IMG/VR virus record: IMGVR_UViG_2531839479_000006
From: a virus
Taxonomy: Duplodnaviria; Heunggongvirae; Uroviricota; Caudoviricetes
Strand: one strand, 5' to 3'
DNA length: 25,652 nucleotides
Positions 1,419 to 15,858 of the stretch are shown here, piece by piece; position 1 is the first letter of the stretch, and every line of letters starts with the position of its first letter. A model generated the notes under the pieces. That model was given only the letters and a program-made list of their open reading frames with translations. It did no database searches and was not told the origin of the DNA. The translations under genes and the position numbers were made by a program.

Positions 1419-3893
1419 TTAAAAATCAGCCTGATTCGGAATCAGTTTTTGCCAGATAGCTGAAACGTATTTTGCCTGGTAACGGGCGTCATCAAGTGCA
1501 TTATGGCGCTCACCTTCGAATGGAATAGCCGTTCTGGCATCGAAGTCTATGGCTTTCCCCAGCTCAACGATTGTGCGTACATCGCGATCGTTGTAGTAAC
1601 GCCACGGGCAGGGGATCCCCTGCCGTTCGTATGAACGGCGCAAAATCGTGTTGTCGAAGTTGGCTCCATTTCCCCAGACCTGAACAAAAAATTCACCGGA
1701 GTTTTCGTCGATAAATTCCCGCAATTGTAACAGTGCATCATCTAACGGGATTTCATCGGTCATAATGGCAGATTGCGCTTCGCGTGATTGCTTAAGCCAC
1801 CATTTAATGGTGTCTCGATCAATGACTCCGCCAGCAGTTTCCAGATCGATAGTCTTACTAAATTCCGGTCCCATATCTCCGGTTTGCGGATCGAAAAATA
1901 TTGCACCTATTGAGATAATCGGGGCATCAGGATTTTTTCCCATGGTTTCAAGGTCGATCATTAGATGGTCACACGTCCTACTGGCGGATGTGATTTCGTG
2001 ATGACCGTTCACCTTAATTGAGTGATCTGCCGTCTCGCCAGTTTCATTATCGCTATTGTGATGCTGATTGCCGCCAGTGTTCTTCTTGTTTGGATGTTCA
2101 GCGCCTTCCATTTCCTCCGGATCATCTTCCTGAACTTCAACCTGATACTCTTCATCGAATGTTTCCTGGTATGTTGCGTCGCCCATCACCGCGCCACAAT
2201 CAGGGCAGTTGCCGCCGCCGGTCTGACCGCAGGCGGTGCAGATCTTTTCCGGTTCCTGTTGCACTACTGGTTCAGGTTGTTTCGTTTCTGGCTCGTTTTG
2301 TAACGCATTTGGGCTGTTTTGTTCCGCTTTCTGGCCGTTCTGTTCCGTTTCTTGCTGGTTCTGGTTCACAGAATCGCGGGTTTCCATCCCCTTCACCCAT
2401 TTCGGATCATTCGGATCGCTAATTCCTGCAACAAATTCACCACGTGATACTGCAAGCAGTTCATCGGCGTCAGGCTGGCTGATATTGGCTGCCTGCATAA
2501 TGTTGTTTACTTCGTCAGCGGGAACTTTTACCGGCCCTGGTTGTGCGGTCGTGTCAGATGCACCAGTATTTTGTTGTGAACCTGAGTATGTACTGTTTTT
2601 GCGGACGAAATATTCTTCTTTCGTGATTTCAGTAGCCCCTGCAGCCAGTGCCTTATCCAGACCAGAAGGTTTGTTTGCGCGACCGTATTTTTCGCCGTCC
2701 TTATCGGTGAAAAGGAAGTAGAACGGTCCCTCACGCTCTACAGATGGTTCGTCTTCCACTTCGCATTCGGTTTTTTCGTTGTCCGGCATTGCCGTTTCCA
2801 CTGCATCAGTTTCTGGTACTGGTGACGGGAGAGTACCAGCTGTGCCCTGATTTGTTCCTTCGTCATCTTCAAACACGCCCTTGGTAGTCAGGTATTCAGT
2901 GATGTATTTGTTCAGTGCTACGGGATCTTTGTGAATGTCGATCGGACGCTCACGGACAAGACCAAAAATAGGCTGACGGTCGTAGCGAACGGCATCGGGT
3001 TGTTTGCGCATTGATGCGGAAATGCGCTTCCAGTCTTCGCGATCTTTGTCGATAACTTCATTTTTTGCCCAGCGATGGATGCTGCCGTCAATGTTTCCGG
3101 TATCAATATCGCCAGGCCAGAGAGCGCAGGCCAGTTCTTCATCCAGCGTTTTCCATGTCTGCTTGTATTCGCGACAAATGGCGGCAGTGACTGGGTTGAT
3201 TTTTCCTGCTGAGTTTTCAGTGTTCTGTTGATTGACTCTGGCGCTGGCGAGATCAACAACAGACGTGTATTTTCCAGTCTCTTTGCGCTCTGCGTCCTGC
3301 CGTTTTTTCCAGTTACGTAATTCAGCCTGAATTTCGGGCCATTTGGCACCCGGATTACATTTGTGTTTAACCCATCCGATAGCGAACAGTTTGCGTTCCG
3401 GATACATAGCGTTAATTTCAGGCGTTTTCATCAGTGCTTCAACGATATGCCCGTCAAAGGTAGCAACATCTTCCTGCAGTAATTCCTGCGCGTCAATCGC
3501 CATATCAACGGTGATGTTTTCACATGTACCGAACTTAACCAGGACCGCGTTCTGTACTTCAAGGGACAGCTTGTCAAAATTGACGTTCATCGGATCGGAT
3601 TCTGGTTCGACCGGAATAAAGGAAGCGGATTCCTCATCCCAGCGGTTTTCCTGCATATATTCAGCATCCCAGGAATCGAGGGCAGGGCGGGGTATACCGG
3701 GTTTATCCTCGCAAACAAGAAATTTATAAGCGCAGTCCTGAGCAGCCGGATAATGTTCCAGGAATTGCCAGTGAAATTTTGCGCGGGCGCGACGTTCATC
3801 ACCGGCTTCAATGGCAGTGGCTACAGCGACGGCACCTTCTTCCTTTATTGCCTGTTCGTCCGGAATAGCGGCGCAAATAAAGACTTTACTCAT
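1419..3893 (-). CDS. Prophage exonuclease, 824 aa, with C-terminal DnaQ-like DEDDh 3'-5' exonuclease domain and a central CxxC...CxxC motif
   Basis: C-terminal motifs read directly: IDLETMG (Exo I), WGNGANFDNTIL (Exo II), HNALDDARYQAKY (Exo III with His). Central CTACGQTGGGNCPDCG looks like a zinc ribbon. Sits where lambdoid phages carry exo/recombination genes. Confidence 0.75.
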   Translation of the reverse strand: MSKVFICAAIPDEQAIKEEGAVAVATAIEAGDERRARAKFHWQFLEHYPAAQDCAYKFLVCEDKPGIPRPALDSWDAEYMQENRWDEESASFIPVEPESDPMNVNFDKLSLEVQNAVLVKFGTCENITVDMAIDAQELLQEDVATFDGHIVEALMKTPEINAMYPERKLFAIGWVKHKCNPGAKWPEIQAELRNWKKRQDAERKETGKYTSVVDLASARVNQQNTENSAGKINPVTAAICREYKQTWKTLDEELACALWPGDIDTGNIDGSIHRWAKNEVIDKDREDWKRISASMRKQPDAVRYDRQPIFGLVRERPIDIHKDPVALNKYITEYLTTKGVFEDDEGTNQGTAGTLPSPVPETDAVETAMPDNEKTECEVEDEPSVEREGPFYFLFTDKDGEKYGRANKPSGLDKALAAGATEITKEEYFVRKNSTYSGSQQNTGASDTTAQPGPVKVPADEVNNIMQAANISQPDADELLAVSRGEFVAGISDPNDPKWVKGMETRDSVNQNQQETEQNGQKAEQNSPNALQNEPETKQPEPVVQQEPEKICTACGQTGGGNCPDCGAVMGDATYQETFDEEYQVEVQEDDPEEMEGAEHPNKKNTGGNQHHNSDNETGETADHSIKVNGHHEITSASRTCDHLMIDLETMGKNPDAPIISIGAIFFDPQTGDMGPEFSKTIDLETAGGVIDRDTIKWWLKQSREAQSAIMTDEIPLDDALLQLREFIDENSGEFFVQVWGNGANFDNTILRRSYERQGIPCPWRYYNDRDVRTIVELGKAIDFDARTAIPFEGERHNALDDARYQAKYVSAIWQKLIPNQADF

Positions 3894-3972
3894 GTTGTTT
3901 TAACCTCATTACAGATTTAAGGGTGAACAAATCCCTGCCATTGCTGGCATATAAAATGAAACCGGATATTAA

Positions 3973-4176
3973 TTACGGCGCTGTTTTAAGTCCTGCCGGG
4001 ATTTCGTTATTATCCATGTGAATAACTTTATCGACCGGATAGCAGTTACCGGGAATTTTTTGTTCTGCTGCGGCAGCCATGCATTCTTTCATTGAACCGT
4101 AAATGTCAATAACCATGTCAACAGGCTCGCCAGTATTAAGAAAAACAGTCAGAGTGAGGGCAATAGCAGTATTCAT
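3973..4176 (-). CDS. Small hydrophobic-N-terminus protein, 67 aa, in the position of ydfD in dicB operons
   Basis: Internal Met with AAGGA 8 nt upstream; N-terminus MNTAIALTLTVFL is signal/TM-like. Its ATG overlaps the dicB stop by 4 nt. The six-frame ORF extends to 4230 without a ribosome binding site. Confidence 0.5.
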   Translation of the reverse strand: MNTAIALTLTVFLNTGEPVDMVIDIYGSMKECMAAAAEQKIPGNCYPVDKVIHMDNNEIPAGLKTAP

Positions 4177-4361
4177 TGCCAGTATCCTTTTTGCATCGGG
4201 CGTAAACGTGCCAGCATTGAAAGAATGCATATTTTATTTAATAGCTCCCGTTCGTATTTTCTCTTATTAATGGCATCTTCAGTAAATACTGGGTTACTGA
4301 TAGTGACACCAATTTCAAAACAACCTTCAGACGTATTGACGTTTGGTAATAACGTTTCCAT
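4173..4361 (-). CDS. dicB: Cell division inhibitor DicB homologue, 62 aa
   Basis: 62-aa ORF METLLPNVNTSEGCFEIGVTISNPVFTEDAINKRK...LARLRPMQKGYWQ closely matches E. coli DicB as I recall it, and has the same length. GAGGA sits 7 nt upstream of the ATG. The six-frame ORF (4173-4457) has an unsupported N-terminal extension. Confidence 0.65.
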   Translation of the reverse strand: METLLPNVNTSEGCFEIGVTISNPVFTEDAINKRKYERELLNKICILSMLARLRPMQKGYWQ

Positions 4362-4540
4362 TATCGCGTCCTCAACAATGAATTTTGTGATGCGGTGCCT
4401 GGTGCCTCCAGGTGACGTTAACCAGTTAATAATTAACGCCGGATACAGAGAACCCACCCATAAGAACCAATACGGAAGTCAACTGGCCTTTTTAACTGTT
4501 CCGCGTGCGCTGAGCCGCATTCACCGCATCACAAAATTCA

Positions 4541-4605
4541 CTTTAAAAGGGGCGGGTATCATGGGAAAAACAAAACGGATACCCGCCAAAAGGTAATCAA
4601 CATGG
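4541..4605 (-). ncRNA. dicF: DicF-like small RNA candidate with 3' hairpin
   Basis: Minus-strand reading UUUUGGCGGGUAUCCGUUUUGU...GAUACCCGCCCCUUUU. The core resembles E. coli DicF (UUUGGCGGUAUCAGUUUUAC...CCGCCC, from memory). A 10-bp GC-rich stem followed by a short U-run ends about 180 nt upstream of dicB. Exact ends are not determinable by eye. Confidence 0.4.
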
Positions 4606-5151
4606 GTTGTTGCAGCGGGGTTGTCACTCAGGCGTATGGTCAACCTGACAACCCGGTGGACATTTGCGAGGAACGGAGAACCCCCGCCATACTTACCGCC
4701 GCGCCATTTCGCGGAGTGCCACAACCGGAAGCGCACGGTCGACGAAAATTTAACGACAGGCTATCTATGAACCAGCAACCTCGCCGTGCGCTTTCGCGTT
4801 ATGCTCTGACTTTTCAGAGAAATATCCTTTCAGTAAACTGTCAGTGCCGGATGCTCACCCGTGTCCGGCGCACACACTCCACCTCACCCGTGGAGAACTC
4901 CTTAATTACCAACCCTCAGGAGGGTGAATGTTAAAATCAACGCTTATTGCTAAATGCCTTTATCAAAATCGCATGGTAAGCAGCATTTCAATAGGCGAAT
5001 CTGCAGTTAAAAGTATTTTCGAAGAGTACTTTCGAAGAGTACTTTTCTGGGCGTGATTTTAATAAATGGAATACCAAATTACCGCCAGCAGTTTCAACGC
5101 GTATTCTGAAAGCAACTGAAAGAGCAAGTACAATTCGCGTTAACTATTTCA

Positions 5152-5559
5152 TTAAAGATTTGTGGGGTCTTTGATATCCACAGAGCCTAAAGTATGTGCA
5201 TATGGATGTGCTATTGTGCGCCCCTGTAAATTTGCATCGTTTTCTAAATCTTTTGATTTCAACAGAACATCAGCAAGACTCTGAATCATGCAGAGATAAT
5301 CAAAAACAGTTGCCGTTTCTGTTCTGACTGCTGAAATAACATGACCATTCAGGCAAACAGAAATTACCCGTTCATCAATATCGTTTTCCTGTTTTTGATT
5401 ATCAGAACAATATAGCCCTGAAAAAGCATTGCGCACATTACGAACCATATTATCGATGGTTTCTTTTTTGGTGTATGCCGGGTCAATTTTCACCAGACTA
5501 TCACCGAGTGTCGTTGCAGCAATTATCTGGATTTCTTTTGGTAAATCTTTAAATTCCAT
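5152..5559 (-). CDS. Hypothetical protein, 135 aa, leftward early operon
   Basis: Clean ORF with GAGG 7 nt upstream of the ATG. Same strand and tight spacing with the flanking leftward genes. No family recognised. Confidence 0.55.
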   Translation of the reverse strand: MEFKDLPKEIQIIAATTLGDSLVKIDPAYTKKETIDNMVRNVRNAFSGLYCSDNQKQENDIDERVISVCLNGHVISAVRTETATVFDYLCMIQSLADVLLKSKDLENDANLQGRTIAHPYAHTLGSVDIKDPTNL

Positions 5560-5581
5560 TATTAGCCTCGTTGGTTAACCA

Positions 5582-5800
5582 TTAACGTGGGTATGTAATC
5601 ATTCTGGCAATGCTTAATGCCGCTGCTTTTTCCAGATTGGTGATATCCTGCTCCAGAGCGGACAGATTTTCAGCCTGCTTAGCCCTGGCTTCATTGGCCC
5701 ATTTCAGGTCCTGCGCAGCCTTAATTTTCTGGTGCATCCACTCATAAAGTTCATCATCGGTATAGTCTGGCGCGATGATGACGGGTTCTCGTTTCTGCAT
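5582..5800 (-). CDS. Small protein, 72 aa, same size and position as YdfC of dicB operons
   Basis: ORF with GAGGA 6 nt upstream of the ATG. Identity inferred from gene order and size only. Confidence 0.55.
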   Translation of the reverse strand: MQKREPVIIAPDYTDDELYEWMHQKIKAAQDLKWANEARAKQAENLSALEQDITNLEKAAALSIARMITYPR

Positions 5801-5829
5801 ACTGATTCCTCGCGGTGCTGCTTCGCTTA

Positions 5830-5958
5830 TCAGCCGTTAGATTTTGCCAAACTGGAAAGCGCCTGTTTAAATTCGCTGAAGCTGAGGGCTTCTTCGCCTT
5901 CGGCAAGGCCTTCGAAGTATTCTTCGTAAGCCTTTTCCATGATTGTGTTGAAATCCAT
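5830..5958 (-). CDS. Small acidic protein, 42 aa, same size and position as YdfB; absent from the six-frame track
   Basis: Hand-translated MDFNTIMEKAYEEYFEGLAEGEEALSFSEFKQALSSLAKSNG with AGGTGA 5 nt upstream. It starts 2 nt after the stop of the upstream ORF. The track's 69-aa ORF 5754-5963 is a different frame with junk-like R/K/S composition. Confidence 0.5.
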   Translation of the reverse strand: MDFNTIMEKAYEEYFEGLAEGEEALSFSEFKQALSSLAKSNG

Positions 5959-5959
5959 A

Positions 5960-6115
5960 TCACTCACCTGAGTTTCTTTCCAGCCAGCGACGGGCACCAT
6001 TTTCGGTTTTAAACGTTTTGCTTTTGGTATGCGTCATCGCGGTGAACGTGCCGTCCTGATTGGGAAACACGCCGCACACCAGAGATTCGTTGTTGCCAAG
6101 ATCGATAGTATCCAT
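5960..6115 (-). CDS. Small protein, 51 aa, same size and position as YdfA
   Basis: Internal Met of the 78-aa ORF gives MDTIDLGNNESLVCGVFPNQDGTF..., 51 aa. It is the first gene after the candidate leftward promoter. Confidence 0.5.
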   Translation of the reverse strand: MDTIDLGNNESLVCGVFPNQDGTFTAMTHTKSKTFKTENGARRWLERNSGE

Positions 6116-6324
6116 GTTGACCTCATTTCCCCTTAACGCCGGGGTGGCGGAACAAAAACCTGCTGCATAGTTATTAAAGTTGAACCCTGCCGTCATGTTC
6201 TTACGCCTCGGGCTGGCTACTTAACCCCTGACCACTGCCTGGTAACTCGAAGTATTGCCCTGCATTCTGTAGGATGGGGTGAGGGAATGAATGAGGTTTA
6301 GAAAAACGAACTTTTCAGGTCAAT

Positions 6325-6340
6325 GTTTTTTTATCAAAAC
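6325..6340. promoter_or_regulatory. Candidate left operator (GTTTT-N6-AAAAC dyad) next to a leftward promoter
   Basis: GTTTTTTTATCAAAAC matches the dyad found twice between the cI-like and cro-like genes. On the minus strand it abuts a TTGACC -35 (6319-6324) and, 17 bp downstream, a weak TAAACC -10. Confidence 0.4.
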
Positions 6341-6407
6341 ATTTTAAGCAGGCAGCTGTTAAGCCATCACCACGATGGCATACAGTTAATCAAATAGATG
6401 AGGTTGG

Positions 6408-7046
6408 TTAAATATCTTGTTGAATTTTAAAGCATACGCCCAATATGCAAGATAGATCATCCAGCATAATTGAAGGGTAGCGAGGATTCGTGGGGACTAA
6501 AAGAATATCCGGCCCTTCTATCTCCAGTTTACGAATGACAGGTGTTGTGGTCCCTTTGGGTAAGGCAAGGACAATATTTCCTGGTTGTACGGTTCGATCG
6601 GGATCAACAAAAACTGTTGAACCATTTGGGATGGAAACTCCCCCACCAGATGTTGACATACTGTCACTCTCTAGAACAACTGCAAAGGTATTGACCGGGA
6701 TTTCTCCGACAAGCTGCACACAAGAGGTTATTGAGGAATTTTTCATATAATCACTCCAGCTTGCTGCCTGCTGAAGTGATAGTAGCGGAACCGTTTTTAT
6801 CGGCGGTAAAGATAGATCAAGCGAATCACCTGTATTTAACTCTCCTCCATTAAGAAGCCAATTTTCGTTTACTTTCAATATTTTTGCCAGTGAACTTATG
6901 TAACGCGAGGACGGCGCTCCTCCACCGTTCATCCATTGACTTACGGAGCCTTTTGATGCGCCAGTGCCATTGACAAGGTCTTTGCCTTTCAGGTTTAGCG
7001 CATGCATACGTTGGGTTATGCGTTCAGATATAGTTTGCTTGCTCAT
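6408..7046 (-). CDS. CI-like prophage repressor (N-terminal HTH, C-terminal LexA/S24 autopeptidase domain)
   Basis: The C-terminus follows lambda CI closely (ESDSM...VFVDPDRTVQPGNIV...LVPTNPRYPSI and an RKL lysine motif). N-terminal HTH. Divergent from the cro-like gene. Confidence 0.85.
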   Translation of the reverse strand: MSKQTISERITQRMHALNLKGKDLVNGTGASKGSVSQWMNGGGAPSSRYISSLAKILKVNENWLLNGGELNTGDSLDLSLPPIKTVPLLSLQQAASWSDYMKNSSITSCVQLVGEIPVNTFAVVLESDSMSTSGGGVSIPNGSTVFVDPDRTVQPGNIVLALPKGTTTPVIRKLEIEGPDILLVPTNPRYPSIMLDDLSCILGVCFKIQQDI

Positions 7047-7062
7047 GTTTTGATTTTAAAAC
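7047..7062. promoter_or_regulatory. Operator site 1 (GTTTTGATTTTAAAAC), abutting the cI start codon
   Basis: Dyad GTTTT-N6-AAAAC directly adjacent to the cI ATG. A TAAAAT -10-like hexamer on the minus strand lies 6 nt before the ATG, suggesting a leaderless cI transcript. Confidence 0.45.
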
Positions 7063-7092
7063 ACAGATGGTTTTGTTTCTTGACTTTCTTTG

Positions 7093-7108
7093 GTTTTGAT
7101 TATTAAAC
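7093..7108. promoter_or_regulatory. Operator site 2 (GTTTTGATTATTAAAC) overlapping the candidate rightward promoter
   Basis: Second copy of the dyad, overlapping the spacer and -10 region downstream of a TTGACT -35 (7079-7084), upstream of the cro-like gene. Confidence 0.4.
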
Positions 7109-7137
7109 TTTTGACGTTCAGTTTTATGGAGCGACTC

Positions 7138-7368
7138 ATGAAAAAATCAGAAGTATTAGGCTATTTTGGCGGAGTTGTTAAAACAGCCGCAGCTCTAGGA
7201 ACGTCAAAAACCACAGTCAGCATGTGGGGGGAAGAGGTTCCGTGGAAATGGGCGTTGCTAATTCAGGCAGTCACTGCCGGGGCGCTCAAATATGAGTTAC
7301 ACATACCGACGGTTGTCATTCCCGGTTCTGATCATAATCCGCCTTCTAACCAAGGGGGGGATTCATGA
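7138..7368 (+). CDS. Cro-like HTH regulator (YdaS-like)
   Basis: Small ORF divergent from the repressor. Start chosen at MKKSEVLG, which has GGAG 7 nt upstream. HTH-like segment VVKTAAALGTSKTTVSMW. Confidence 0.65.
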   Translation: MKKSEVLGYFGGVVKTAAALGTSKTTVSMWGEEVPWKWALLIQAVTAGALKYELHIPTVVIPGSDHNPPSNQGGDS

Positions 7369-7861: not shown

Positions 7862-8932
7862 ATGGCTAACGCCTGGCTCAGATTATGGCATGACATGCCA
7901 AATGACCCTAAGTGGCGAACAATTGCCAGGGTGTCAGGGCAGCCAATTGCAACAGTGATGGCAGTGTATATCCACCTCCTGGTGAGCGCGTCACGAAATG
8001 TCACGCGAGGTCACATTGATGTCACGACAGAAGATTTGGCAAGTGCGCTCGACGTGACAGAAGAGGTAATTGATTCAATTTTGCAGACGATGCAGGGGCG
8101 GGTACTTGATGGTGATTTAATCACTGGATGGGAAAAACGCCAGGTGCTGAAAGAGGACAACGGCAATATTTCGCAAACCGCAAAATCTCCGGCAGAGCGC
8201 AAGAGGGCGCAGCGAGAGAGGGAAAGAAAGCGGGAACAAAATGGCGATTGTCACGGCGAGTCACGAAATGTCACGCACATGTCACGACGAGTCACGACAG
8301 ATAAAGATACAGATAAAGATACAGATCAAGAAGATCAAAACACTATGGTCCATGGCGTAAAAAACGCCACGAACCAGGCAGGGGATGTTCAGACCGTCAC
8401 TCCTGGCCAGCCCGCAGGCACGACACCGGAAGCCGATTCAGCGTATGCGCTGAAAGCCGATTCGGGCGCTGTGCAGCAGGTGATGACCGCAAGGCAGGAG
8501 CAATCACACCAACTTCAGCAGCCTGAAGCCGATTCCGCCATTCAGCGGGAAGCCGATCGGGTAGTCCCGGAAAACACCGGGCAGCCTGTGGGACGAGTGG
8601 ATTATCCTGATGTGTTCGAACAGATCTGGCGGGAATACCCGTTGCGTGCTGGGGCAAACCCGAAGAAATCCGCTTTCAGTGCCTGGAAGGCCAGATTACG
8701 CGAGGGGGTGTCACCAGAGGCCATGCTGGATGGCGTGAGGCGTTACGCAAGATACCTTGCGGCTACCGGGAAAACGGGAACGGAATTTGTTCAGCGAGCG
8801 ACGACGTTTTTTGGACCGGACCGGAATTTTGAAAACCCCTGGCTGCTCCCGGTAAGCGGCACGAACAACCAGCGTTGTGTGAATCATATTTCTGAACCGG
8901 ATACCGAAATTCCACCGGGCTTCAGGGGGTAA
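7862..8932 (+). CDS. Replication initiation protein (O-like) containing the origin iterons
   Basis: ATG with AGAAGAGG upstream. Two clusters of GTCACG iterons and an AT-rich tandem repeat lie inside the coding sequence, as for lambda ori inside gene O. Confidence 0.65.
   Translation: MANAWLRLWHDMPNDPKWRTIARVSGQPIATVMAVYIHLLVSASRNVTRGHIDVTTEDLASALDVTEEVIDSILQTMQGRVLDGDLITGWEKRQVLKEDNGNISQTAKSPAERKRAQRERERKREQNGDCHGESRNVTHMSRRVTTDKDTDKDTDQEDQNTMVHGVKNATNQAGDVQTVTPGQPAGTTPEADSAYALKADSGAVQQVMTARQEQSHQLQQPEADSAIQREADRVVPENTGQPVGRVDYPDVFEQIWREYPLRAGANPKKSAFSAWKARLREGVSPEAMLDGVRRYARYLAATGKTGTEFVQRATTFFGPDRNFENPWLLPVSGTNNQRCVNHISEPDTEIPPGFRG
7990..8030. repeat. Iteron cluster 1: four GTCAC(G) repeats at 10-11 bp spacing
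   Basis: GTCACG at 7990, 8000 and 8021, GTCACA at 8010. The 17-mer GTCACGAAATGTCACGC is shared with cluster 2. Confidence 0.55.
8250..8340. repeat. Iteron cluster 2 plus AT-rich tandem repeat: candidate replication origin
   Basis: GTCACG at 8250, 8260, 8270, 8281 and 8291 (helical phasing), followed by GATAAAGATACA x2 and an A/T-rich run. Confidence 0.6.
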
Positions 8933-8972
8933 GTGTTGATTTCTGGTCATGAGGTAATTTTCAGGAGGACTT

Positions 8973-9395
8973 GTGGCAAAAGTTTTTACACAAGAAGAGC
9001 GAGAAAAAATTAAAGGGCAGGTTGTTGAACTCGTACGCCAGAGTGGGCGTGAGACGTTACGGCAACTGGAAGTCAAGACAGGTGCGACAAGATATCTGAT
9101 GAGCGTTCTCGCAAGAGAGCTGGTTGCCAGCGGCGATGTATACAACTCTGGTTACGGGTTATTCCCGTCTGAACAGGCGCGTAAGGACTGGCAAAATGCC
9201 CGTAAAAAGCTCTCAAGGGCAAAGCTGAAGAAACCATCTGCGGTTGATCCGGACCTTATCTGGTCATTACCTGACGGAGAAATACGTCGCTACGACAGGC
9301 GTCAGAACATAATCTGTCGCGAGTGCCGGAAGAGTGAGGTTATGCAGCGTGTGCTGGCATTTTATCAGGGTAATTTTCAGGAGGTGATGGCGTGA
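8973..9395 (+). CDS. Hypothetical protein, 140 aa, replication module
   Basis: ORF with a GTG start and GGAGGA upstream. Basic C-terminus with CxxC. Function unknown; it is not an obvious helicase loader. Confidence 0.45.
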   Translation: MAKVFTQEEREKIKGQVVELVRQSGRETLRQLEVKTGATRYLMSVLARELVASGDVYNSGYGLFPSEQARKDWQNARKKLSRAKLKKPSAVDPDLIWSLPDGEIRRYDRRQNIICRECRKSEVMQRVLAFYQGNFQEVMA

Positions 9396-9688
9396 GGGTG
9401 AGGGTTTATATCGCCGGTCCAATGACGGGGTATGAAAATTTCAACCGTGAGGCGTTTCACAAGGCAGAAGAGGAACTGAAACGGGAAGGGCATACCGTCT
9501 TAAACCCGGCAGTACTTCCGGACGGGCTGACACAGCCGCACTACATGGATATTTGCATGGCAATGATTCGTTGTGTGGATGCGATTTACATGCTGAAAGG
9601 CTGGCAGCGGTCAGCAGGCGCTAAGGCAGAACTGGCGCTGGCGGAGAAACTGGGGCATGCAGTTATTTTCCAGGAGGAGGTACAGTGA
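9392..9688 (+). CDS. DUF4406-like protein (nucleoside 2-deoxyribosyltransferase-like fold)
   Basis: N-terminal VYIAGPMTG...NF pattern typical of that phage family (from memory). Start overlaps the upstream stop. Confidence 0.5.
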   Translation: MRVRVYIAGPMTGYENFNREAFHKAEEELKREGHTVLNPAVLPDGLTQPHYMDICMAMIRCVDAIYMLKGWQRSAGAKAELALAEKLGHAVIFQEEVQ

Positions 9689-9960
9689 ATATCGACGCAA
9701 CAATGACGATTGGTACGGCCCTCAATACGGGGCTGGCGCTTCTTGGTTGGTGCTACATCATGTTCTGCTCATGGCGGTGGCTGTCACTGATGTTACTGAA
9801 AGAATGGAATAAACGCTGTAAACAGACGCAGCGGCAGAAGGCAATGAATGCGTTTTTTGAGACCTTCGATATTGACAGTATAGAACCAGGAGAGCCAGCT
9901 CGCGTGATTAGCAGAGGTGACGTTGTAATTCTTGTATACCGGAGTGAAGAGAAAGCATAA
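9685..9960 (+). CDS. Hypothetical small membrane protein, 91 aa
   Basis: ORF overlapping the upstream stop, with a hydrophobic segment LALLGWCYIMFCSW. Last gene before the composition drops. Confidence 0.4.
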   Translation: MNIDATMTIGTALNTGLALLGWCYIMFCSWRWLSLMLLKEWNKRCKQTQRQKAMNAFFETFDIDSIEPGEPARVISRGDVVILVYRSEEKA

Positions 9961-10074
9961 TCCAAATCTGAATAATTAAATCCAGCACTGTAAATAAAAT
10001 TTAATCCTTAACCGGAGGGATTTCTGCACCCTCAGAACATCAGGAGGCCGCCCGAAAGGGCGGTGGAGATAATA

Positions 10075-10590
10075 ATGGAAATAACTAAAGAACGATTATT
10101 GGAAATAGCAAATCTTAGTGAAAGGGCATTAAGTGATGGGAGGATTATTTCTCCTGATGCTTATGAATCAGTTACAAGTATAGAAATAATAACGATGGCC
10201 AGGATGCTTCTTGCTCGCTTCAAAAAAGAATATAAAAAACAGGTAGATAGCAATGCTAATATATATGATATTTTGGACTGTTGGGGAGCTTGGGCTGTAG
10301 CTGGAAATAGTTCTATCAACTGGCAGCAAGTGGCTGATAAATATAAAGATGTTGTGCCTCATGGTAAAAAATTGCGTCGCCAGAGCAGCGATGATGAAGG
10401 GCGAGTGATTGATGAGTGGATATTGAGACTCAGACAATATAAAATAGATGAATATGAGTTAATTGTTGCCCACTTTGTAATAGGCGTTTCTTTGAGAAAG
10501 ATCGCAAAAAGAAAGAAATGTGCGGATGGGACTATTAGAAAAAAAATACAAGCAGCGATGGGAGTATTGGAGGGAGTATTAATGCTCTAA
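10075..10590 (+). CDS. Q-like regulator (antiterminator-Q family fold, C-terminal sigma-70 region-4-like HTH), AT-rich
   Basis: ATG with GGAG 6 nt upstream. Shares a W-G-x-W motif and a C-terminal basic HTH (SLRKIAKRKK...TIRKKI) with the prophage Q at 15304-15858 (WGRW ... MSKRKMAELL ... RNRI). Composition matches the AT-rich insertion. Confidence 0.55.
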   Translation: MEITKERLLEIANLSERALSDGRIISPDAYESVTSIEIITMARMLLARFKKEYKKQVDSNANIYDILDCWGAWAVAGNSSINWQQVADKYKDVVPHGKKLRRQSSDDEGRVIDEWILRLRQYKIDEYELIVAHFVIGVSLRKIAKRKKCADGTIRKKIQAAMGVLEGVLML

Positions 10591-10599
10591 CTGTTAGAG

Positions 10600-11820
10600 C
10601 TAAATAAAAATCTTCGCAAGAAATATTCCTGCTGCAATAGAACTTGGTAGCCAAGCCAAATACATAAATAACTTTATTGTATTATCACATTTGGTTTGGC
10701 TCTTTGATAGTTCATATAGAGCCTCATTAATGTCCTTCTTAAGGTCTTCTGGATAATTTTCATTGTTTTTTAGAAAAGGCATAAATGCTATATCTTTAGC
10801 ATGGTAAATATGTTTTAATTGTTTATCCTGATTGAGTAATACCATATATAAAATAAGTGAGCTTAACAATACACCTAATAAAACGAGTAACATTTCAGAT
10901 CTTGATGTTAGTTTTATAATCCCGAAGGATGCCAGTAAAGACACAGGGATTGATAATACTTTTGTCGTCAAATCAGTAATAAGTTTTGAGATTTTTTCAG
11001 CAAACTCTGCTTCAGACTTCGCAATTTCTTTTCGTGCCTTATGGAATGAAAAACCACTCATATACGTGGATAAATTATTTTCAAATAGCTTTACAAATTT
11101 ATCCCAATGGCAAATTAGGTTTTCAAAATCATATTTGTTATCGAGAATAAACTCCACTATGGTATTCCTGAAAATACCTGTTTTTTCTGCTTGATGGGGG
11201 ATTTGGGCGTTTTTTACATCTAAAAGACTCTTGATGATAGCATCATCAATGTCATTTATATTGAGCATCTTAGGTGTAATGCACGTTTCTAAAATAATAG
11301 ATGTTGATTTTGCGTCAGAATCTTTCACGAAAACTAAACGATAATTTGAAGATTCCGATTTTGTATCGTGAAAGTGCGCAATCTCAGCCAGGGAAGAAAT
11401 AATTGCACAAATTTTCTCGATTTTTATAATTTCGTCCGGTTTACTTGAATCAGACGGATGAAAATCCTCATCGATTATGTAATACTCTTTAGGAATTACA
11501 CCTTTCTTGAGTGAGTTTATACAAAGGAACTCTTGAATTGAGTTATAGAAACGTTCTGCTCCATTTTTAGGGGATATGTAAGTGTATGAGAATTTATCTC
11601 CAATTTTAATTGGGTGTGATTTTAAATCGTCTTCGTCAATGAACTCATTATTAATATCAACATCTTCAAAATAACCGTAGGCTTTATGTGAATTTACTAA
11701 CAAGTTTACCAAACGTTGATTGTTATTATTTATTTCAACAGTTGCAGAAAAAGAACGTCCGTCGAATTGGGGCTTCGATGATGCTCTATAAAAATCTACA
11801 ACCGTTGATAAATTAGCCAT
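10600..11820 (-). CDS. Membrane-anchored protein, ~406 aa: soluble N-terminal domain plus 2-3 C-terminal TM helices; candidate effector
   Basis: Long AT-rich ORF. C-terminal hydrophobic helices EMLLVLLGVLLSSLILYMVLL and LFMYLAWLPSSIAAGIFLAKIFI. Its ATG lies inside the last codons of the upstream gene (ATGGCTAA), indicating translational coupling. Confidence 0.8.
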   Translation of the reverse strand: MANLSTVVDFYRASSKPQFDGRSFSATVEINNNNQRLVNLLVNSHKAYGYFEDVDINNEFIDEDDLKSHPIKIGDKFSYTYISPKNGAERFYNSIQEFLCINSLKKGVIPKEYYIIDEDFHPSDSSKPDEIIKIEKICAIISSLAEIAHFHDTKSESSNYRLVFVKDSDAKSTSIILETCITPKMLNINDIDDAIIKSLLDVKNAQIPHQAEKTGIFRNTIVEFILDNKYDFENLICHWDKFVKLFENNLSTYMSGFSFHKARKEIAKSEAEFAEKISKLITDLTTKVLSIPVSLLASFGIIKLTSRSEMLLVLLGVLLSSLILYMVLLNQDKQLKHIYHAKDIAFMPFLKNNENYPEDLKKDINEALYELSKSQTKCDNTIKLFMYLAWLPSSIAAGIFLAKIFI

Positions 11821-12955
11821 TTTCTTTTCCACTATCCCTTATTTTTAAATTTTCTTTTACCACAGCGCTTAGTTTAGCCTTAAATTCAGCTGGTAAGTTT
11901 GTAAATGATAATCTTCCAGTTGTTTCATCGTACCACACATCATCATCAGCTGTCACTCCAAGGAGAGACTTGTCAAAATTAAATCCAATCTCATCAGTCT
12001 TAAAGGTGATGTTTTTAATGTCTTTCAACGCCCGTTTACTGATAACAAATTCAGTTGGGATTCTCACATTTTCACTATTTAAAAAAAGAATTAATTCGTG
12101 AGTGTAAGATTCTTTGGTAGACTCATCTAAATTTGTCATGTGACGTGCTGCAATTACTTCAATATCACTCAATCGGGCTGATAAATTTTTAGCTGCTTGT
12201 GTGTCTAAATATGCAATAACGTCATGTTTAAATCTATTGGCACATGCTTTAAGTTCTGGTTTTTGGTTAAAAAATTGTTTTGCGACAGTTGGTAGTTTTT
12301 TTGTGGCTTTTGCTGCTGCAAGTGATTTGTCGCATCCTATTGCTGCAATAAAATATGCTGATGTGGATTGACCCACTCCTTTACTTACGAAACTTAGATA
12401 ACTTAAGTCAATTTTTTCAGACTCATCAGCAGTTTTATATTGTTGGTAGAGATTGAAATTTATTCTTGCTGCTTGGTGTATTTTGGATAGATCCAAATGG
12501 ATCATTTCTTCAGGTTCGAGTTTGTTGCTGATAGTAACACCATTTTTCTTTTTAATCATTGCAATTAAAAAGAATTTATTGTTATTTACAATATAGTCAC
12601 AAAACACAATAAAACCACCAGATGACCAAGGTTCTTCTTTGGCTTTTTTTACAAGTTGCTTCATCACTTCAATAGAAAAAGGCACAAACTTTTCATTAAT
12701 GTTATCCTCTGACTGAGAATACTCTTCAAATATTGATGGCACAGGCCCTTGTTCTGTTTTCTCCTCTTTAAAAACGCCATAATGTGCAGAATTGCCTTTG
12801 GTTCCATATAAAGATGAAATGTCTTGAATAAGTTTTATAACAATTGGATTGGTTTTATCGAGAGGAGTGGATCTAAGCTGATACGGCTTAGAAAAATCAA
12901 AATCCTTTTTTGCTTCTTTAATTAGTTCATGAACGATAACTTGCTTAATTTCCAT
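11813..12955 (-). CDS. NdpA/YejK-family (nucleoid-associated protein, 37-kDa family) homologue, diverged, 380 aa
   Basis: Blocks match E. coli YejK as I recall it: IVHELIK vs ALHQLIK, SGGFIVFCDY vs DGGFVLFCHY, YLSFVSKGVGQ vs YLTFLKGRVGR, and the C-terminal GFNFD...LLG...D.TTGRLSF vs [30 protein letters not shown] upstream. Confidence 0.8.
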   Translation of the reverse strand: MEIKQVIVHELIKEAKKDFDFSKPYQLRSTPLDKTNPIVIKLIQDISSLYGTKGNSAHYGVFKEEKTEQGPVPSIFEEYSQSEDNINEKFVPFSIEVMKQLVKKAKEEPWSSGGFIVFCDYIVNNNKFFLIAMIKKKNGVTISNKLEPEEMIHLDLSKIHQAARINFNLYQQYKTADESEKIDLSYLSFVSKGVGQSTSAYFIAAIGCDKSLAAAKATKKLPTVAKQFFNQKPELKACANRFKHDVIAYLDTQAAKNLSARLSDIEVIAARHMTNLDESTKESYTHELILFLNSENVRIPTEFVISKRALKDIKNITFKTDEIGFNFDKSLLGVTADDDVWYDETTGRLSFTNLPAEFKAKLSAVVKENLKIRDSGKENG

Positions 12956-13045
12956 ATTGAAAATATCACCTATGTTATTGTTAGATCGTTTGTGATTTTT
13001 TTACCATCACAACAACGACACAAAATCATTAATGCGTACGCAAAA

Positions 13046-13074
13046 ATTTTGAATAATGAGTTAATCAATGTCAA
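13046..13074 (-). promoter_or_regulatory. Candidate promoter for the NdpA-like/membrane-protein operon
   Basis: Minus-strand TTGACA (13069-13074), a 17-bp spacer, then CAAAAT (13046-13051), about 90 nt upstream of the NdpA-like ATG. Pattern match only. Confidence 0.3.
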
Positions 13075-13230
13075 TAGTTAAACACACTACCGCTGTAGAG
13101 TTGTTGTCATTAAATTGCGTCATAAGTAGAATTGCTGCGGGTGCTTGAGGCTATCTGTCTCAGGCATGAACACCAAAAGGCAGATAGAGAAAAGCCCCAC
13201 CCGACTATAAATCGAAGTGAGGCCAGTCTT

Positions 13231-13437
13231 ATGTCTCGACAACTGAAGATTAGCCTCTTACGTGCCGAAAGGCAAGGAGAAGCAGGCTATGAAGCAGCAA
13301 AAGGCGATGTTAATCGCCCTGATCGTCATCTGTTTAACCGTCATAGTGACGGCACTGATAACGAGGAAAGACCTCTGCGAGGTACGAATCCGAACCGGCC
13401 AGACGGAGGTCGCTGTCTTCACAGCTTACGAACCTGA
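13231..13437 (+). CDS. mok: Mok-like overlapping reading frame of the hok locus
   Basis: ORF starting MSRQLK with GAAGTGAGG upstream, overlapping hok in another frame as in hok/sok loci. Confidence 0.45.
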   Translation: MSRQLKISLLRAERQGEAGYEAAKGDVNRPDRHLFNRHSDGTDNEERPLRGTNPNRPDGGRCLHSLRT

Positions 13438-13444
13438 GGAGTAA
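13289..13444 (+). CDS. hok: Hok/Gef-family type I toxin, 51 aa
   Basis: MKQQKAMLIALIVICLTVIVTALITRKDLCEVRIRTGQTEVAVFTAYEPEE is near-identical to the Hok/HokD family sequence as I recall it. AGGAGA 8 nt upstream. Confidence 0.85.
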   Translation: MKQQKAMLIALIVICLTVIVTALITRKDLCEVRIRTGQTEVAVFTAYEPEE

Positions 13445-13513
13445 GAGACCAGGTGAGGGAGAAATCCCTCGCCACCTCTGATGAGTCAGGCATCCTCAAC
13501 GCACCCGCACTTA

Positions 13514-13539
13514 ACCCGCTTCGGCGGGTTTTGTTTTTT
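13514..13539 (+). terminator. Rho-independent terminator downstream of hok
   Basis: CCCGC-TTCG-GCGGG stem-loop followed by TTTTGTTTTTT. Confidence 0.6.
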
Positions 13540-13611
13540 CCTGGCATTCTGGTTTACAATTCGCACGCCAGCCTGAACAACTGGCACCTGCTGCGCCAGC
13601 AGAGACAACCG

Positions 13612-13884
13612 ATGGCGCACAAAACCAAATTTCACAATTCTGATACCGCCCTTGCCATCCGGCATGGGCGGCGTTCACACGCATTTAAAACCGACTGGTA
13701 CCAACACCCACCATGTACTGAAGAACAGGCCGAATGGCTAATTCATAACTACCGCAGACGCGGATACGAGATTAAGAAAGCCCTCAGCCTCGATTATCGT
13801 CACTGGATAATCTATGTCAGGCTCCCTTATTCCGAACGCCCACCGCGTCCGTCCCGCACATTCCAGCAACGCATCTGGAGGTAA
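13612..13884 (+). CDS. Hypothetical basic protein, ~90 aa
   Basis: Internal Met MAHKTKFHNSD... chosen because the upstream part of the six-frame ORF contains the hok terminator. Weak ribosome binding site. Confidence 0.4.
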   Translation: MAHKTKFHNSDTALAIRHGRRSHAFKTDWYQHPPCTEEQAEWLIHNYRRRGYEIKKALSLDYRHWIIYVRLPYSERPPRPSRTFQQRIWR

Positions 13885-13885
13885 C

Positions 13886-14941
13886 GTGCGGGTATTACTT
13901 CGACCTGTTCCGGTACCGGAACTTGGGCTGGTGGTGCTAAAACCGGGCCGTGAATCCATGCAGGTATTTCATAATCCTCGAGTTCTGGTGGAGCCGGAAC
14001 CGAAAAGCATGCGCGGTCTGCCGTCCGGAGTCGTTCCTGCCGTTCGCCAGCCATTGGCGGAGGATAAATCATTACTGCCATTTTTCAGCGATGAGCGGGT
14101 GATTCGTGCTGCTGGTGGTGCTGGTGCACTGTCTGACTGGCTGTTACGCCACATTAAATCCTGCCAGTGGCCTCATGGTGACTACCATCACAGCGAAACC
14201 GTCATACATCGTTACGGTACCGGTGCAATGGTGTTGTGTTGGCACTGCGACAACCAGCTGCGTGACCAGACTTCCGAATCACTCGGGCAGCTTGCTCACC
14301 AAAATTTGTCAGCATGGATGATTGACGTCATACGCCATGCAATGAATGGCACGCAGGAGCGGGAATTATCGCTGGCTGAATTATCCTGGTGGGCAACCAT
14401 AAATAACGTAGCGGACGCACTACCGGAGACGGTATTACGTCGTTCTCTGGGGTTACGTGCGGAAAAAATCCGCTCGGTGTACCGCGAAAGCGACATCATA
14501 CCGGGAGAGCAGACAGCCACCAGCATCCTGAAACAGCGCACAAAAAATCTTGCGCCGCTGCCTCACGCCCACCAGCAAAACCCGCCACAGGAAAAGACGG
14601 TGGTCAGCATTGCCGTTGATCCGGAGTCACCGGCTCAGTATCTCCAGCGCCAGAAACCACAACGGGAAGATATGCCTGTATACACGCGTTGGGTAAAAAC
14701 GCAGAAATGCATGACGTGTGGCAATCAGGCAGATGATCCGCATCACATCATTGGTCATGGACTGGGAGGGATGGGAACAAAGGCTGATGATTTGTTTGTT
14801 ATTCCGCTGTGCCGTAAATGCCATAGCGAACTACACGCCGGGGTAAAAGATTTTGAAGAAAAACACGGCAGCCAGCTGTTGTTGCTGATTCGTTTTTTAA
14901 TGCACGCGAGAAATTCGGGTGTCCTGAAGTGGAAAGCATGA
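13886..14941 (+). CDS. Prophage protein with C-terminal HNH-like Cys/His motif (YdfU-like)
   Basis: GTG start with GGAGG 4 nt upstream. C-terminal CMTCGN...DPHHIIGHG...CRKCH resembles an HNH/zinc-finger nuclease motif. Lies directly upstream of rusA. Confidence 0.6.
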   Translation: MRVLLRPVPVPELGLVVLKPGRESMQVFHNPRVLVEPEPKSMRGLPSGVVPAVRQPLAEDKSLLPFFSDERVIRAAGGAGALSDWLLRHIKSCQWPHGDYHHSETVIHRYGTGAMVLCWHCDNQLRDQTSESLGQLAHQNLSAWMIDVIRHAMNGTQERELSLAELSWWATINNVADALPETVLRRSLGLRAEKIRSVYRESDIIPGEQTATSILKQRTKNLAPLPHAHQQNPPQEKTVVSIAVDPESPAQYLQRQKPQREDMPVYTRWVKTQKCMTCGNQADDPHHIIGHGLGGMGTKADDLFVIPLCRKCHSELHAGVKDFEEKHGSQLLLLIRFLMHARNSGVLKWKA

Positions 14942-15307: not shown

Positions 15308-15858
15308 TCGTAAATATGATATACCCGGAAATTACAGGCAAAAGCGGCGAGCATTTACGTCTAAAAACGCTGGAAGCCGTCTGGATCCAGGGGAAATTAC
15401 GGATGTGGGGGCGTTGGTCGTATATAGGTGGTGGCAAACCAGGAAATATGTTCAATCAGTTGCTGGCATCCAAAAAACTGACAAAAACCGCAATCAATGA
15501 AGCCCTGCGTAGAATCAGGGAGTCAGGGATTGATAAACCAGAGCTGGAAGCATTCTTGCGAGAGATGATCGCTGGCAGACAGAAGAGCTGGTTGTCTCAC
15601 TGTACTGATGCAGAGGCGTTACGCATTGATGGGGTGATAAGTAAAGCGCTTGCACGTTATCCTGGATTGATTGATATCCTGCGGCAAAGGTACGAAGGGC
15701 GGGGGATGAGTAAACGCAAAATGGCTGAATTGTTGAATGAGGTTCACCCTGAGTGGTGCTATGCAACATGCCGCAATCGTATAGATATGTGGCTGAGAAT
15801 AGCTGAGTTTATTCTGTATCCACTGATGCGAGATGCATTTTCTTTTACTGACGCTTAG
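15304..15858 (+). CDS. Late gene antiterminator Q
   Basis: Overlaps the rusA stop. Followed by a roughly 190-bp leader and a strong intrinsic terminator, as for lambda PR'/qut/tR'. Contains a WGRW motif and a C-terminal HTH. Confidence 0.65.
   Translation: MIVNMIYPEITGKSGEHLRLKTLEAVWIQGKLRMWGRWSYIGGGKPGNMFNQLLASKKLTKTAINEALRRIRESGIDKPELEAFLREMIAGRQKSWLSHCTDAEALRIDGVISKALARYPGLIDILRQRYEGRGMSKRKMAELLNEVHPEWCYATCRNRIDMWLRIAEFILYPLMRDAFSFTDA

Follow-up and report, generated by a model that had tools for sequence, protein, structure and literature searches.

The viral record IMGVR_UViG_2531839479_000006 (Caudoviricetes) raises the question of what two adjacent, strongly AT-rich genes, here called A and B, are doing in a lambdoid prophage. 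A preliminary description of the window, that is, of the whole analysed stretch of 25,652 nucleotides (nt), had placed between positions 9961 and 13130 a three-gene insertion, acquired horizontally into a prophage cargo slot. It consisted of a Q-like gene, a gene for an NdpA/YejK-like DNA-binding protein (A) and a translationally coupled gene for a protein with C-terminal transmembrane (TM) helices (B), and was regarded as a candidate, undescribed defence or abortive-infection module. We find that the cassette is real, but that its kind was already described in 2025-2026, as DS-1 and as type II PANGU, the pair of the window appearing from its sequence to be a divergent member. A and B probably constitute a prophage-borne two-gene anti-phage system, composed of a nucleoid-associated sensor and a membrane effector, in a sister clade of DS-1 and with the architecture of type II PANGU. 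Four observations carry this reading: the homology of both proteins to those of DS-1, the conserved pairing and coupling of the genes, the domain and charge layout of B, and carriage as exchangeable cargo.

Homology to DS-1

DS-1 (working id D390; WP_000355468.1 and WP_000150292.1) was validated in Escherichia coli by DefensePredictor and consists of a gene for a 391-amino-acid (aa) NA37 protein, a 2-nt gap and a gene for a 404-aa hypothetical protein (PMC13092281, Science 2026). Its effect, expressed as the negative logarithm of the efficiency of plating, was 7.6 on Bas1, 2.7 on Bas26, 1.7 on Bas3 and 1.7 on T3 (Table S7, PMC13092281). The same paper counts YejK among the domains newly validated for defence and gives no mechanism for DS-1 (PMC13092281). 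NCBIfam release 20 contains a pair of models, NF053868 (DS1_1, 'nucleoid-associated anti-phage protein', cut-off of 330 bits) and NF053869 (DS1_2, 315 bits). As a positive control, DS-1A scored 451.4 bits on the former and DS-1B 375 bits on the latter; since both clear the cut-offs, the two models represent the DefensePredictor DS-1 proteins.

The protein encoded by gene A matched PF04245 (NA37) over profile positions 1-324 of 325, with profile position 1 at residue 7 (E-value 2e-51), as well as phrog_3767 (3e-73) and, over its full length, the YejK structure 9be2 of the PDB (3e-14). The NdpA/YejK assignment is, therefore, borne out by the very Pfam family that had been expected. On NF053868, A scored 101.2 bits (5.9e-29), below the cut-off, and on NF001557, the equivalog model of housekeeping YejK, 139.4 bits, below the 341 bits required. 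Gene A thus shares a full-length NA37 match with housekeeping E. coli YejK (9be2, NF001557), but differs from it in falling short of the equivalog cut-off, in being prophage-borne and AT-rich, and in its coupling to a membrane partner. Read from its ATG, gene B encodes 406 aa, and an alternative upstream GTG start at 11832 would give 410 aa. A Pfam scan found neither a Pfam domain nor a toxSAS domain in B, which matched phrog_5023 (7e-70) and, with 105 bits (4.4e-30) and thus below its cut-off, NF053869. BLASTP comparisons with DS-1 gave E-values of 9e-9 for A and 1e-14 for B, the latter over 162 residues. When the B family (45 homologues) was aligned with the DS-1B family (34) using hhalign, the two matched essentially over their full length (386 columns, 99.4% probability, E-value 2.7e-21); the single-sequence comparison of B with DS-1B gave a probability of 97.3%.

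Members of the DS-1 clade with 33-37% identity to DS-1B scored 379-390 bits on NF053869, above its cut-off, whereas three other members of the window's clade obtained 72-103 bits. Because the proteins of the window lie about three-fold under the equivalog cut-offs while DS-1 members at 33-37% identity pass, we assign the pair to a sister clade of DS-1, to which it is homologous at the level of the wider family only. The pair thus belongs to the wider family of a characterised system, not to that system at the equivalog level. The term 'undescribed' has to be given up for the kind of system, in view of the DS-1 matches and the PANGU architecture. The accessions of A and B were absent among the listed rows of the DefensePredictor tables, and PADLOC-DB v2.0.0 (2023), a library older than DS-1 and PANGU, yielded no match for A, B or the Q-like protein at E-values up to 1.

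The two systems are similarly built. An NA37 gene comes first and a gene for a partner of about 400 aa second, with a tight junction (a 2-nt gap in DS-1, an 8-nt overlap in the window), and the sizes are alike (391/404 aa in DS-1, 380/406 aa here). In DS-1B as in B, the N-terminal part is acidic and the C-terminal part basic and hydrophobic, although the hydrophobic segments of DS-1B are weaker on the Kyte-Doolittle scale. Phage protection was observed for DS-1; for the pair of the window, it is predicted from homology.

Architecture of B and its likeness to type II PANGU

The C-terminal TM helices attributed to B were recovered by hydropathy and by structure prediction. Three hydrophobic segments, at about residues 286-303, 310-330 (Kyte-Doolittle score of 2.83) and 385-406, are all helical in an AlphaFold2 model built from a 45-sequence alignment (pLDDT 86.9). 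This model comprises an alpha/beta N-terminal domain (about residues 1-180) and a series of long helices (210-288, 290-303, 307-351, 358-388 and 391-405). Residues 1-283 have a net charge of -10 and an isoelectric point (pI) of 5.35 (family medians of -12 and 5.0), while the TM part, residues 284-406, has a net charge of +3 and a pI of 9.0; DS-1B follows the same charge pattern. Across the 45 sequences of the B family, 23 columns are invariant (among them Y253, F257, F259, H260, K261, P292 and G316) and 37 more are conserved in at least 90% of the members. The best-conserved stretch, common to the DS-1B family, is the helix that precedes the first hydrophobic segment (Y253-x3-F-S-F-H-K...E), followed by I291-P292. 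We infer that this juxtamembrane helix and the TM hairpin may form the functional core of a membrane-perturbing effector.

PANGU systems are bicistronic operons that combine a YejK-like nucleoid-associated protein (NAP) with an effector (preprint of April 2026, bioRxiv 10.64898/2026.04.06.716658). Type II pairs the NAP Pag2A with Pag2B, a protein whose N-terminal domain is acidic and 'DNA-mimicking' (DMK) and whose C-terminal domain is a TM domain (10.64898/2026.04.06.716658). An E. coli type II system blocked T4 by 3-4 logs, required both genes and was not toxic alone; at high multiplicity of infection (MOI) it led to growth arrest, that is, to abortive infection (10.64898/2026.04.06.716658). 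The isolated acidic domain of Pag2B binds Pag2A with a dissociation constant of 19 nM, Pag2A-GFP departs from the nucleoid when T4 infects the cell, and T4 mutants in denA, which encodes EndoII, escape (10.64898/2026.04.06.716658). The preprint contains no citation of DefensePredictor (10.64898/2026.04.06.716658).

Two features that define type II operons recur in the window: the junction behind the NA37 gene is an 8-nt overlap, where type II PANGU has junctions of less than 40 bp, and the partner has a C-terminal TM part, here with three hydrophobic helices. Type I PANGU (Pag1A/Pag1B) likewise has a YejK-like sensor and an acidic DNA-mimicking effector domain as the dock for this sensor, as in the type II model. 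However, its effector Pag1B is a soluble nucleotide pyrophosphokinase, a GRel toxSAS that makes pppGpp, whereas B is a membrane protein without a toxSAS domain. The pair of the window is prophage cargo and does not lie in a defence island. Type II PANGU may belong to the same family as DS-1 and the window's clade, or it may be an analogous one.

By analogy with these relatives, we propose the following mechanism. In the lysogen, the pair would be transcribed from its own promoter, antisense to the rightward operon of the phage. A, as a YejK-like DNA-binding protein, would reside on the chromosome, and B in the inner membrane, where its N-terminal part, acidic and about 280 residues long, would face the cytoplasm. 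An infecting phage that degrades or disrupts the host DNA would release A, which would then bind the acidic, DNA-like N-terminal part of B and thereby switch on the helical TM part. B would compromise the membrane, and the infected cell would no longer support phage growth (abortive infection). Protection against phages, dependence on both genes, the change in location of the NAP, its nanomolar binding to the acidic domain and escape by denA mutation are all taken from relatives; the window's clade may behave as they do, and B may act by membrane damage. The sensor and membrane-effector logic initially suggested for this locus is close to the model published for these homologous or architecturally identical systems.

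Superinfection exclusion, in which B would block DNA entry or another early step, A would bind the incoming DNA or tether B, and the cell would survive, appears quite unlikely. It would suit a prophage-encoded pair that includes a membrane protein and occupies a moron position, and the reduction of Bas1 plating by DS-1, of more than 7 logs without plaques, fits an early block equally well. However, type II PANGU brings about growth arrest at high MOI and depends on a phage nuclease that attacks the host DNA after entry, and the acidic N-terminal domain binds the NAP, not an injection component.

Pairing and coupling across genomes

A genome scan with the B profile retrieved 23 loci, from Xenorhabdus, Proteus, Shigella, Pectobacterium, Providencia, Ewingella, Pantoea, Pseudomonas, Vibrio and two metagenome-assembled genomes (MAGs). 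Together with Klebsiella phage P7641, they make up 24 related loci. In 23 out of 23 genome loci, the gene directly upstream of the B homologue, on the same strand, is a homologue of A (31-65% identity). The synteny that had been proposed as a check is, thus, conserved. The distance between the two genes ranges from -8 to +39 nt in 17 out of these 24 loci, and in the window itself the start of B overlaps the stop of A within ATGGCTAA, which indicates translational coupling; this 8-nt overlap, seen directly in the sequence, agrees with the coupling described earlier. Divergence of A tracks divergence of B (Spearman rho=0.85, p=2e-7). A fusion of A and B in two loci (L005 and L025), suggested by tblastn alignments that overran the stop, was ruled out by stop codons between the open reading frames (ORFs), whose direct inspection gave gaps of 9 and 0 nt, respectively.

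The pair was AT-richer than its flanks in 24 out of 24 loci, by a median of 13 G+C points, including those of Pseudomonas, where the flanks have a G+C content of 0.55-0.60. This AT-richness in all hosts could reflect either a low-GC origin combined with frequent transfer or selection that favours silencing of the H-NS/MvaT type. A profile search in 1.84 billion representative proteins yielded 1,039 clusters of the B superfamily at E-values of at most 1e-3, and the full-length matches listed were about 400-490 aa long. Decayed copies of the pair, with frameshifts or fragmentation, were present in Shigella flexneri (L014, a second copy), Pseudomonas gorinensis (L020) and a Pantoea stink-bug symbiont (L022), so that the system has evidently been lost as well as gained. 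The A homologue of P. gorinensis is split by a gap of about 1.2 kb that may represent an insertion, and about 1.6 kb lies between A and B.

Two loci extend the range of carriers. An intact pair (40% identity for A and 31% for B) was found at 4897-7176 of JAUSNP010000006.1, a 'Candidatus Moraniibacteriota' MAG (L012), where it adjoins a serine recombinase and a type IV secretion system (T4SS) coupling protein; this points either to a mis-binned contig or to transfer well beyond Pseudomonadota. Klebsiella phage P7641 (PQ133623.1, L026), one of two matches among 50,697 phage records, carries the pair at 3821-6182, between Q-like and lysis genes, all of them annotated as hypothetical. Outside the enterobacteria, a defence-island check of the loci found no clear known system adjacent to the pair. 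The neighbours there were mixed: besides housekeeping genes, they included an ICE-like recombinase together with a T4SS coupling protein, a DUF927 protein, and a DEAD helicase accompanied by a T5orf172 protein.

YejK/NdpA paralogues on mobile elements can have other roles. NdpA2 of PAPI-1, an integrative and conjugative element (ICE), works together with TprA to lift silencing by MvaT and governs the element's transfer (PMC8565334). Like gene A, it is a paralogue on a mobile element; unlike gene A, it is a transcriptional co-regulator for which no coupled membrane partner has been described. A could similarly be a mobile-element regulator that counters silencing of the H-NS type, B being an accessory membrane protein under its control, and the precedent of NdpA2 and TprA (PMC8565334), the AT-richness of the cassette in all 24 loci, which makes it a likely target of H-NS or MvaT, and YejK-like genes on temperate phages of Pseudomonas, for which no defence role has been proposed (PMC10305613), all speak for it. 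We nevertheless consider this explanation very unlikely, as it leaves unexplained the obligate, coupled pairing with a specific 400-aa membrane protein in every genome locus, the homology that both partners have to a pair which, expressed by itself, protects E. coli K-12 from phages, and the exchange of cargo over a constant prophage backbone.

An exchangeable two-gene cassette

The window is a lambdoid prophage inserted beside potC and potD. Over 9961-13130, the G+C content is 0.336, compared to flanks with 0.509 on the left and 0.508 on the right, and the three ORFs lie where they had been placed, so that the AT-rich block of the preliminary description stands. The core of this block, 10570-13122 (2,553 bp), has a G+C content of 0.325, which is 5.5 standard deviations under all non-overlapping segments of the same size in the 25.6-kb window. 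One sister prophage, that of E. coli E1433 (L002), is 95% identical by blastn over 8500-10569 and 13123-14497 and has no match between them. Its counterpart of the slot (L002 positions 3706-5115) holds another minus-strand pair, encoding a 304-aa DUF6731 protein and a protein of 159 aa, which occupies the slot in E1433 as well as in at least 10 related genomes.

Because L002 is 95% identical up to 10569 and then carries other cargo, the unit consists of two genes, and the Q-like gene is backbone. The mobile unit is, hence, B and A plus the upstream region of A, and it is smaller than the whole AT-rich block. Horizontal acquisition into a prophage cargo slot is supported by the swapping of cargo between related prophages. 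The idea of a three-gene insertion has to be abandoned, as the Q-like gene is common to sister prophages (95% nt identity) with different cargo. Cassette carriage was limited to 4 of 5,426 complete E. coli genomes, all with at least 99.8% identity, and the stretch queried (9900-13200) was 100% identical to E. coli strain 602354, which had been isolated from human stool in Bangladesh. No flanking direct repeats marking a site-specific insertion were found around the cassette. The DUF6731/159-aa pair of the sister prophages is another candidate defence pair, and its 159-aa protein has weak matches to RexB (1.5e-3) and PDC-M18B (6.6e-3).

That the cassette is an inert, decaying remnant of lambdoid mosaic recombination with no current function in its host, as the frameshifted (cro-like) prophage genes, the duplicated Q function and the decayed copies elsewhere (L014, L020 and L022) might suggest, is hardly credible when both ORFs are intact and full length with their coupling overlap kept, four independent E. 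coli genomes carry the cassette with at least 99.8% identity, and the B family has 23 invariant columns plus 37 conserved at 90% or more within a superfamily of 1,039 clusters. Each of the three alternatives fits fewer observations than a two-gene anti-phage system does.

Weighing the anti-phage reading

Several points weigh against the anti-phage reading or limit how far it can be taken. The pairwise identity to DS-1 is low (22% for A and 27% for B), and since both proteins score about 101-105 bits against cut-offs of 315-330 bits, the function of DS-1 is not simply transferable. DS-1A has an N-terminal Cys4 zinc-ribbon (CLEC...CDKC, residues 5-24; also a NinF-like match) that is missing from gene A, whose N-terminus lacks CxxC pairs. 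Type II PANGU and the pair of the window were compared on the described architecture only, which is identical, and the preprint itself states that the activation of Pag2B is undetermined (10.64898/2026.04.06.716658). The phage spectra differ, DS-1 acting on Bas1, Bas26 and T3 (PMC13092281) and type II PANGU on T4 and Bas34 (10.64898/2026.04.06.716658), so that one trigger common to both cannot be assumed. The N-terminal part of B is moderately acidic, as judged by its net charge and pI. Finally, Foldseek searches with the model of B revealed no specific effector fold, the best E-values being 0.78 in the PDB and 0.29 in BFVD. Alpha-pore-forming toxins and CorA recurred near the top of these fold searches, which is a hint only.

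The RexA/RexB system of phage lambda is a prophage-expressed two-gene abortive-infection module, in which a cytoplasmic sensor activates an inner-membrane effector. Its likeness to A and B is by analogy only, and the PADLOC models of RexA and RexB had no match to either protein.

The insertion slot and its Q-like border

The features of the locus are collected in Table 1. The upstream region of A is part of the exchanged cassette, and the pair may be expressed from the promoter-like site that it contains; the number of promoter-like sites in the region was 12, against 13.0 expected from shuffled sequence, i.e., there was no excess.

Table 1. Features of the cassette and its Q-like border, by position in the window
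Feature	Position	Strand	Basis or content
Q-family antiterminator-like gene, convergent with B	10063/10075..10590	+	PF06530, phrog_3323
Exchangeable cargo cassette	10570..13122		Segment absent from sister prophage; B, A and upstream region of A
Gene B, 406 aa, predicted membrane effector (PGAP WP_001460783.1)	10600..11820	-	DS1_2_antiphage, phrog_5023
Overlap ATGGCTAA of B start and A stop	11813..11820	-	ATG of B 11820-11818, TAA of A 11815-11813
Gene A, 380 aa, predicted infection sensor (PGAP WP_001460784.1)	11813..12955	-	PF04245 NA37
Upstream region of the pair, part of exchanged cassette	12956..13122	-	Promoter-like site, palindrome, Shine-Dalgarno-like motif
Promoter-like site (TTGACA, 17-nt spacer, CAAAAT)	13074-13046	-	Promoter scan, upstream of A
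Palindrome with GCGTACGC core	13028-13047		Upstream of A
Shine-Dalgarno-like motif (GGTGA)	about 10 nt before ATG		Upstream region of the pair

The Q-like protein matched PF06530 with 104.4 bits (cut-off of 26 bits; 4.6e-30) over residues 66-174, preceded by a 65-aa N-terminal extension, with phrog_3323 on residues 4-67, and it shares 84% aa identity with its counterpart in the sister prophage. Its stop lies 9 nt from that of B. Among the enterobacterial loci, 11 have a Q homologue that is convergent to B and follows it immediately; phage P7641 is arranged alike, with a 348-bp convergent ORF after B. The DS-1 clade is likewise found beside a convergent Q, both on the DS-1B contig and in Raoultella-type prophages (87% identity). 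As with the pair of the window, DS-1 in lambdoid prophages is convergent with a PF06530 Q gene on the holin/lysozyme side. In the loci of either clade with visible flanks, rusA, DUF968 and Q come first, followed by B and A, which lie on the other strand, and then by holin and lysozyme. Since the adjacency to Q occurs in both clades, it is a property of the shared insertion slot. The Pseudomonas and Vibrio loci have no Q neighbour and are located on other element types. The Q-like gene, which had been counted as part of the module, is the border of the slot and belongs to the backbone. A role as the regulator of the module was rejected as well, as Q is kept when the cargo is swapped.

The order of genes in the window is unusual, the block of Q and cargo standing ahead of hok, DUF968 and rusA. 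A second Q-type gene (15316-15858) encodes a DUF1133 protein (PF06576, 1.9e-101; weak match to PF06530) and occupies the canonical position before the lysis genes. The odd position of Q and cargo, along with this second Q-type gene, suggests mosaic recombination. A hok-family type I toxin gene (13262-13444, hokD according to the Prokaryotic Genome Annotation Pipeline, PGAP) lies directly to the right of the cassette; with Q at the left, the cargo slot is thus bordered by a Q gene and a post-segregational killer. The prophage of the window also contains frameshifted genes, a cro-like one among them. The neighbourhood beside Q carries the Shiga toxin genes in Stx phages.

The window's clade and the DS-1 clade are only about 20% identical, yet both are convergent to Q in lambdoid prophages. 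Since the stops of Q and B are 9 nt apart in convergent orientation, rightward transcription of the phage might, speculatively, run antisense through the pair on induction. This leads to a bolder proposal, which we regard as unlikely: the clade would be a third, functionally distinct lineage of a NAP with a membrane effector, and its placement convergent to Q would itself be a functional switch for self-immunity by antisense read-through. If this were true, read-through from rightward or Q-dependent transcription would silence the nucleoid sensor as the prophage induces, and a temperate phage could harbour an abortive-infection system without setting it off in its own lytic cycle. As part of the same proposal, the trigger might be something other than host-DNA degradation, given that DS-1 acts on the siphovirus Bas1 and PANGU on T4.

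Significance

The predicted anti-phage pair links the independently named DS-1 and type II PANGU, neither of whose papers cites the other, to a superfamily that comprises at least 1,039 clusters of partner proteins. The recurrent placement at the side of Q in lambdoid prophages supports the view of this slot as a hotspot for defence cargo. Current annotation misses whole clades of these systems: PGAP calls gene B a 'hypothetical protein', and the PADLOC library of 2023 has no match. The locus offers a natural test case, as the cassette is only 2.55 kb long and comes with its own promoter region, and the sister prophage differs essentially only in its cargo. The practical value is modest but real. 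For the question of how the membrane partner of this class is activated and acts on the cell, the 23 invariant positions of B, which are concentrated in the helix that precedes the first TM segment, provide targets for mutagenesis.

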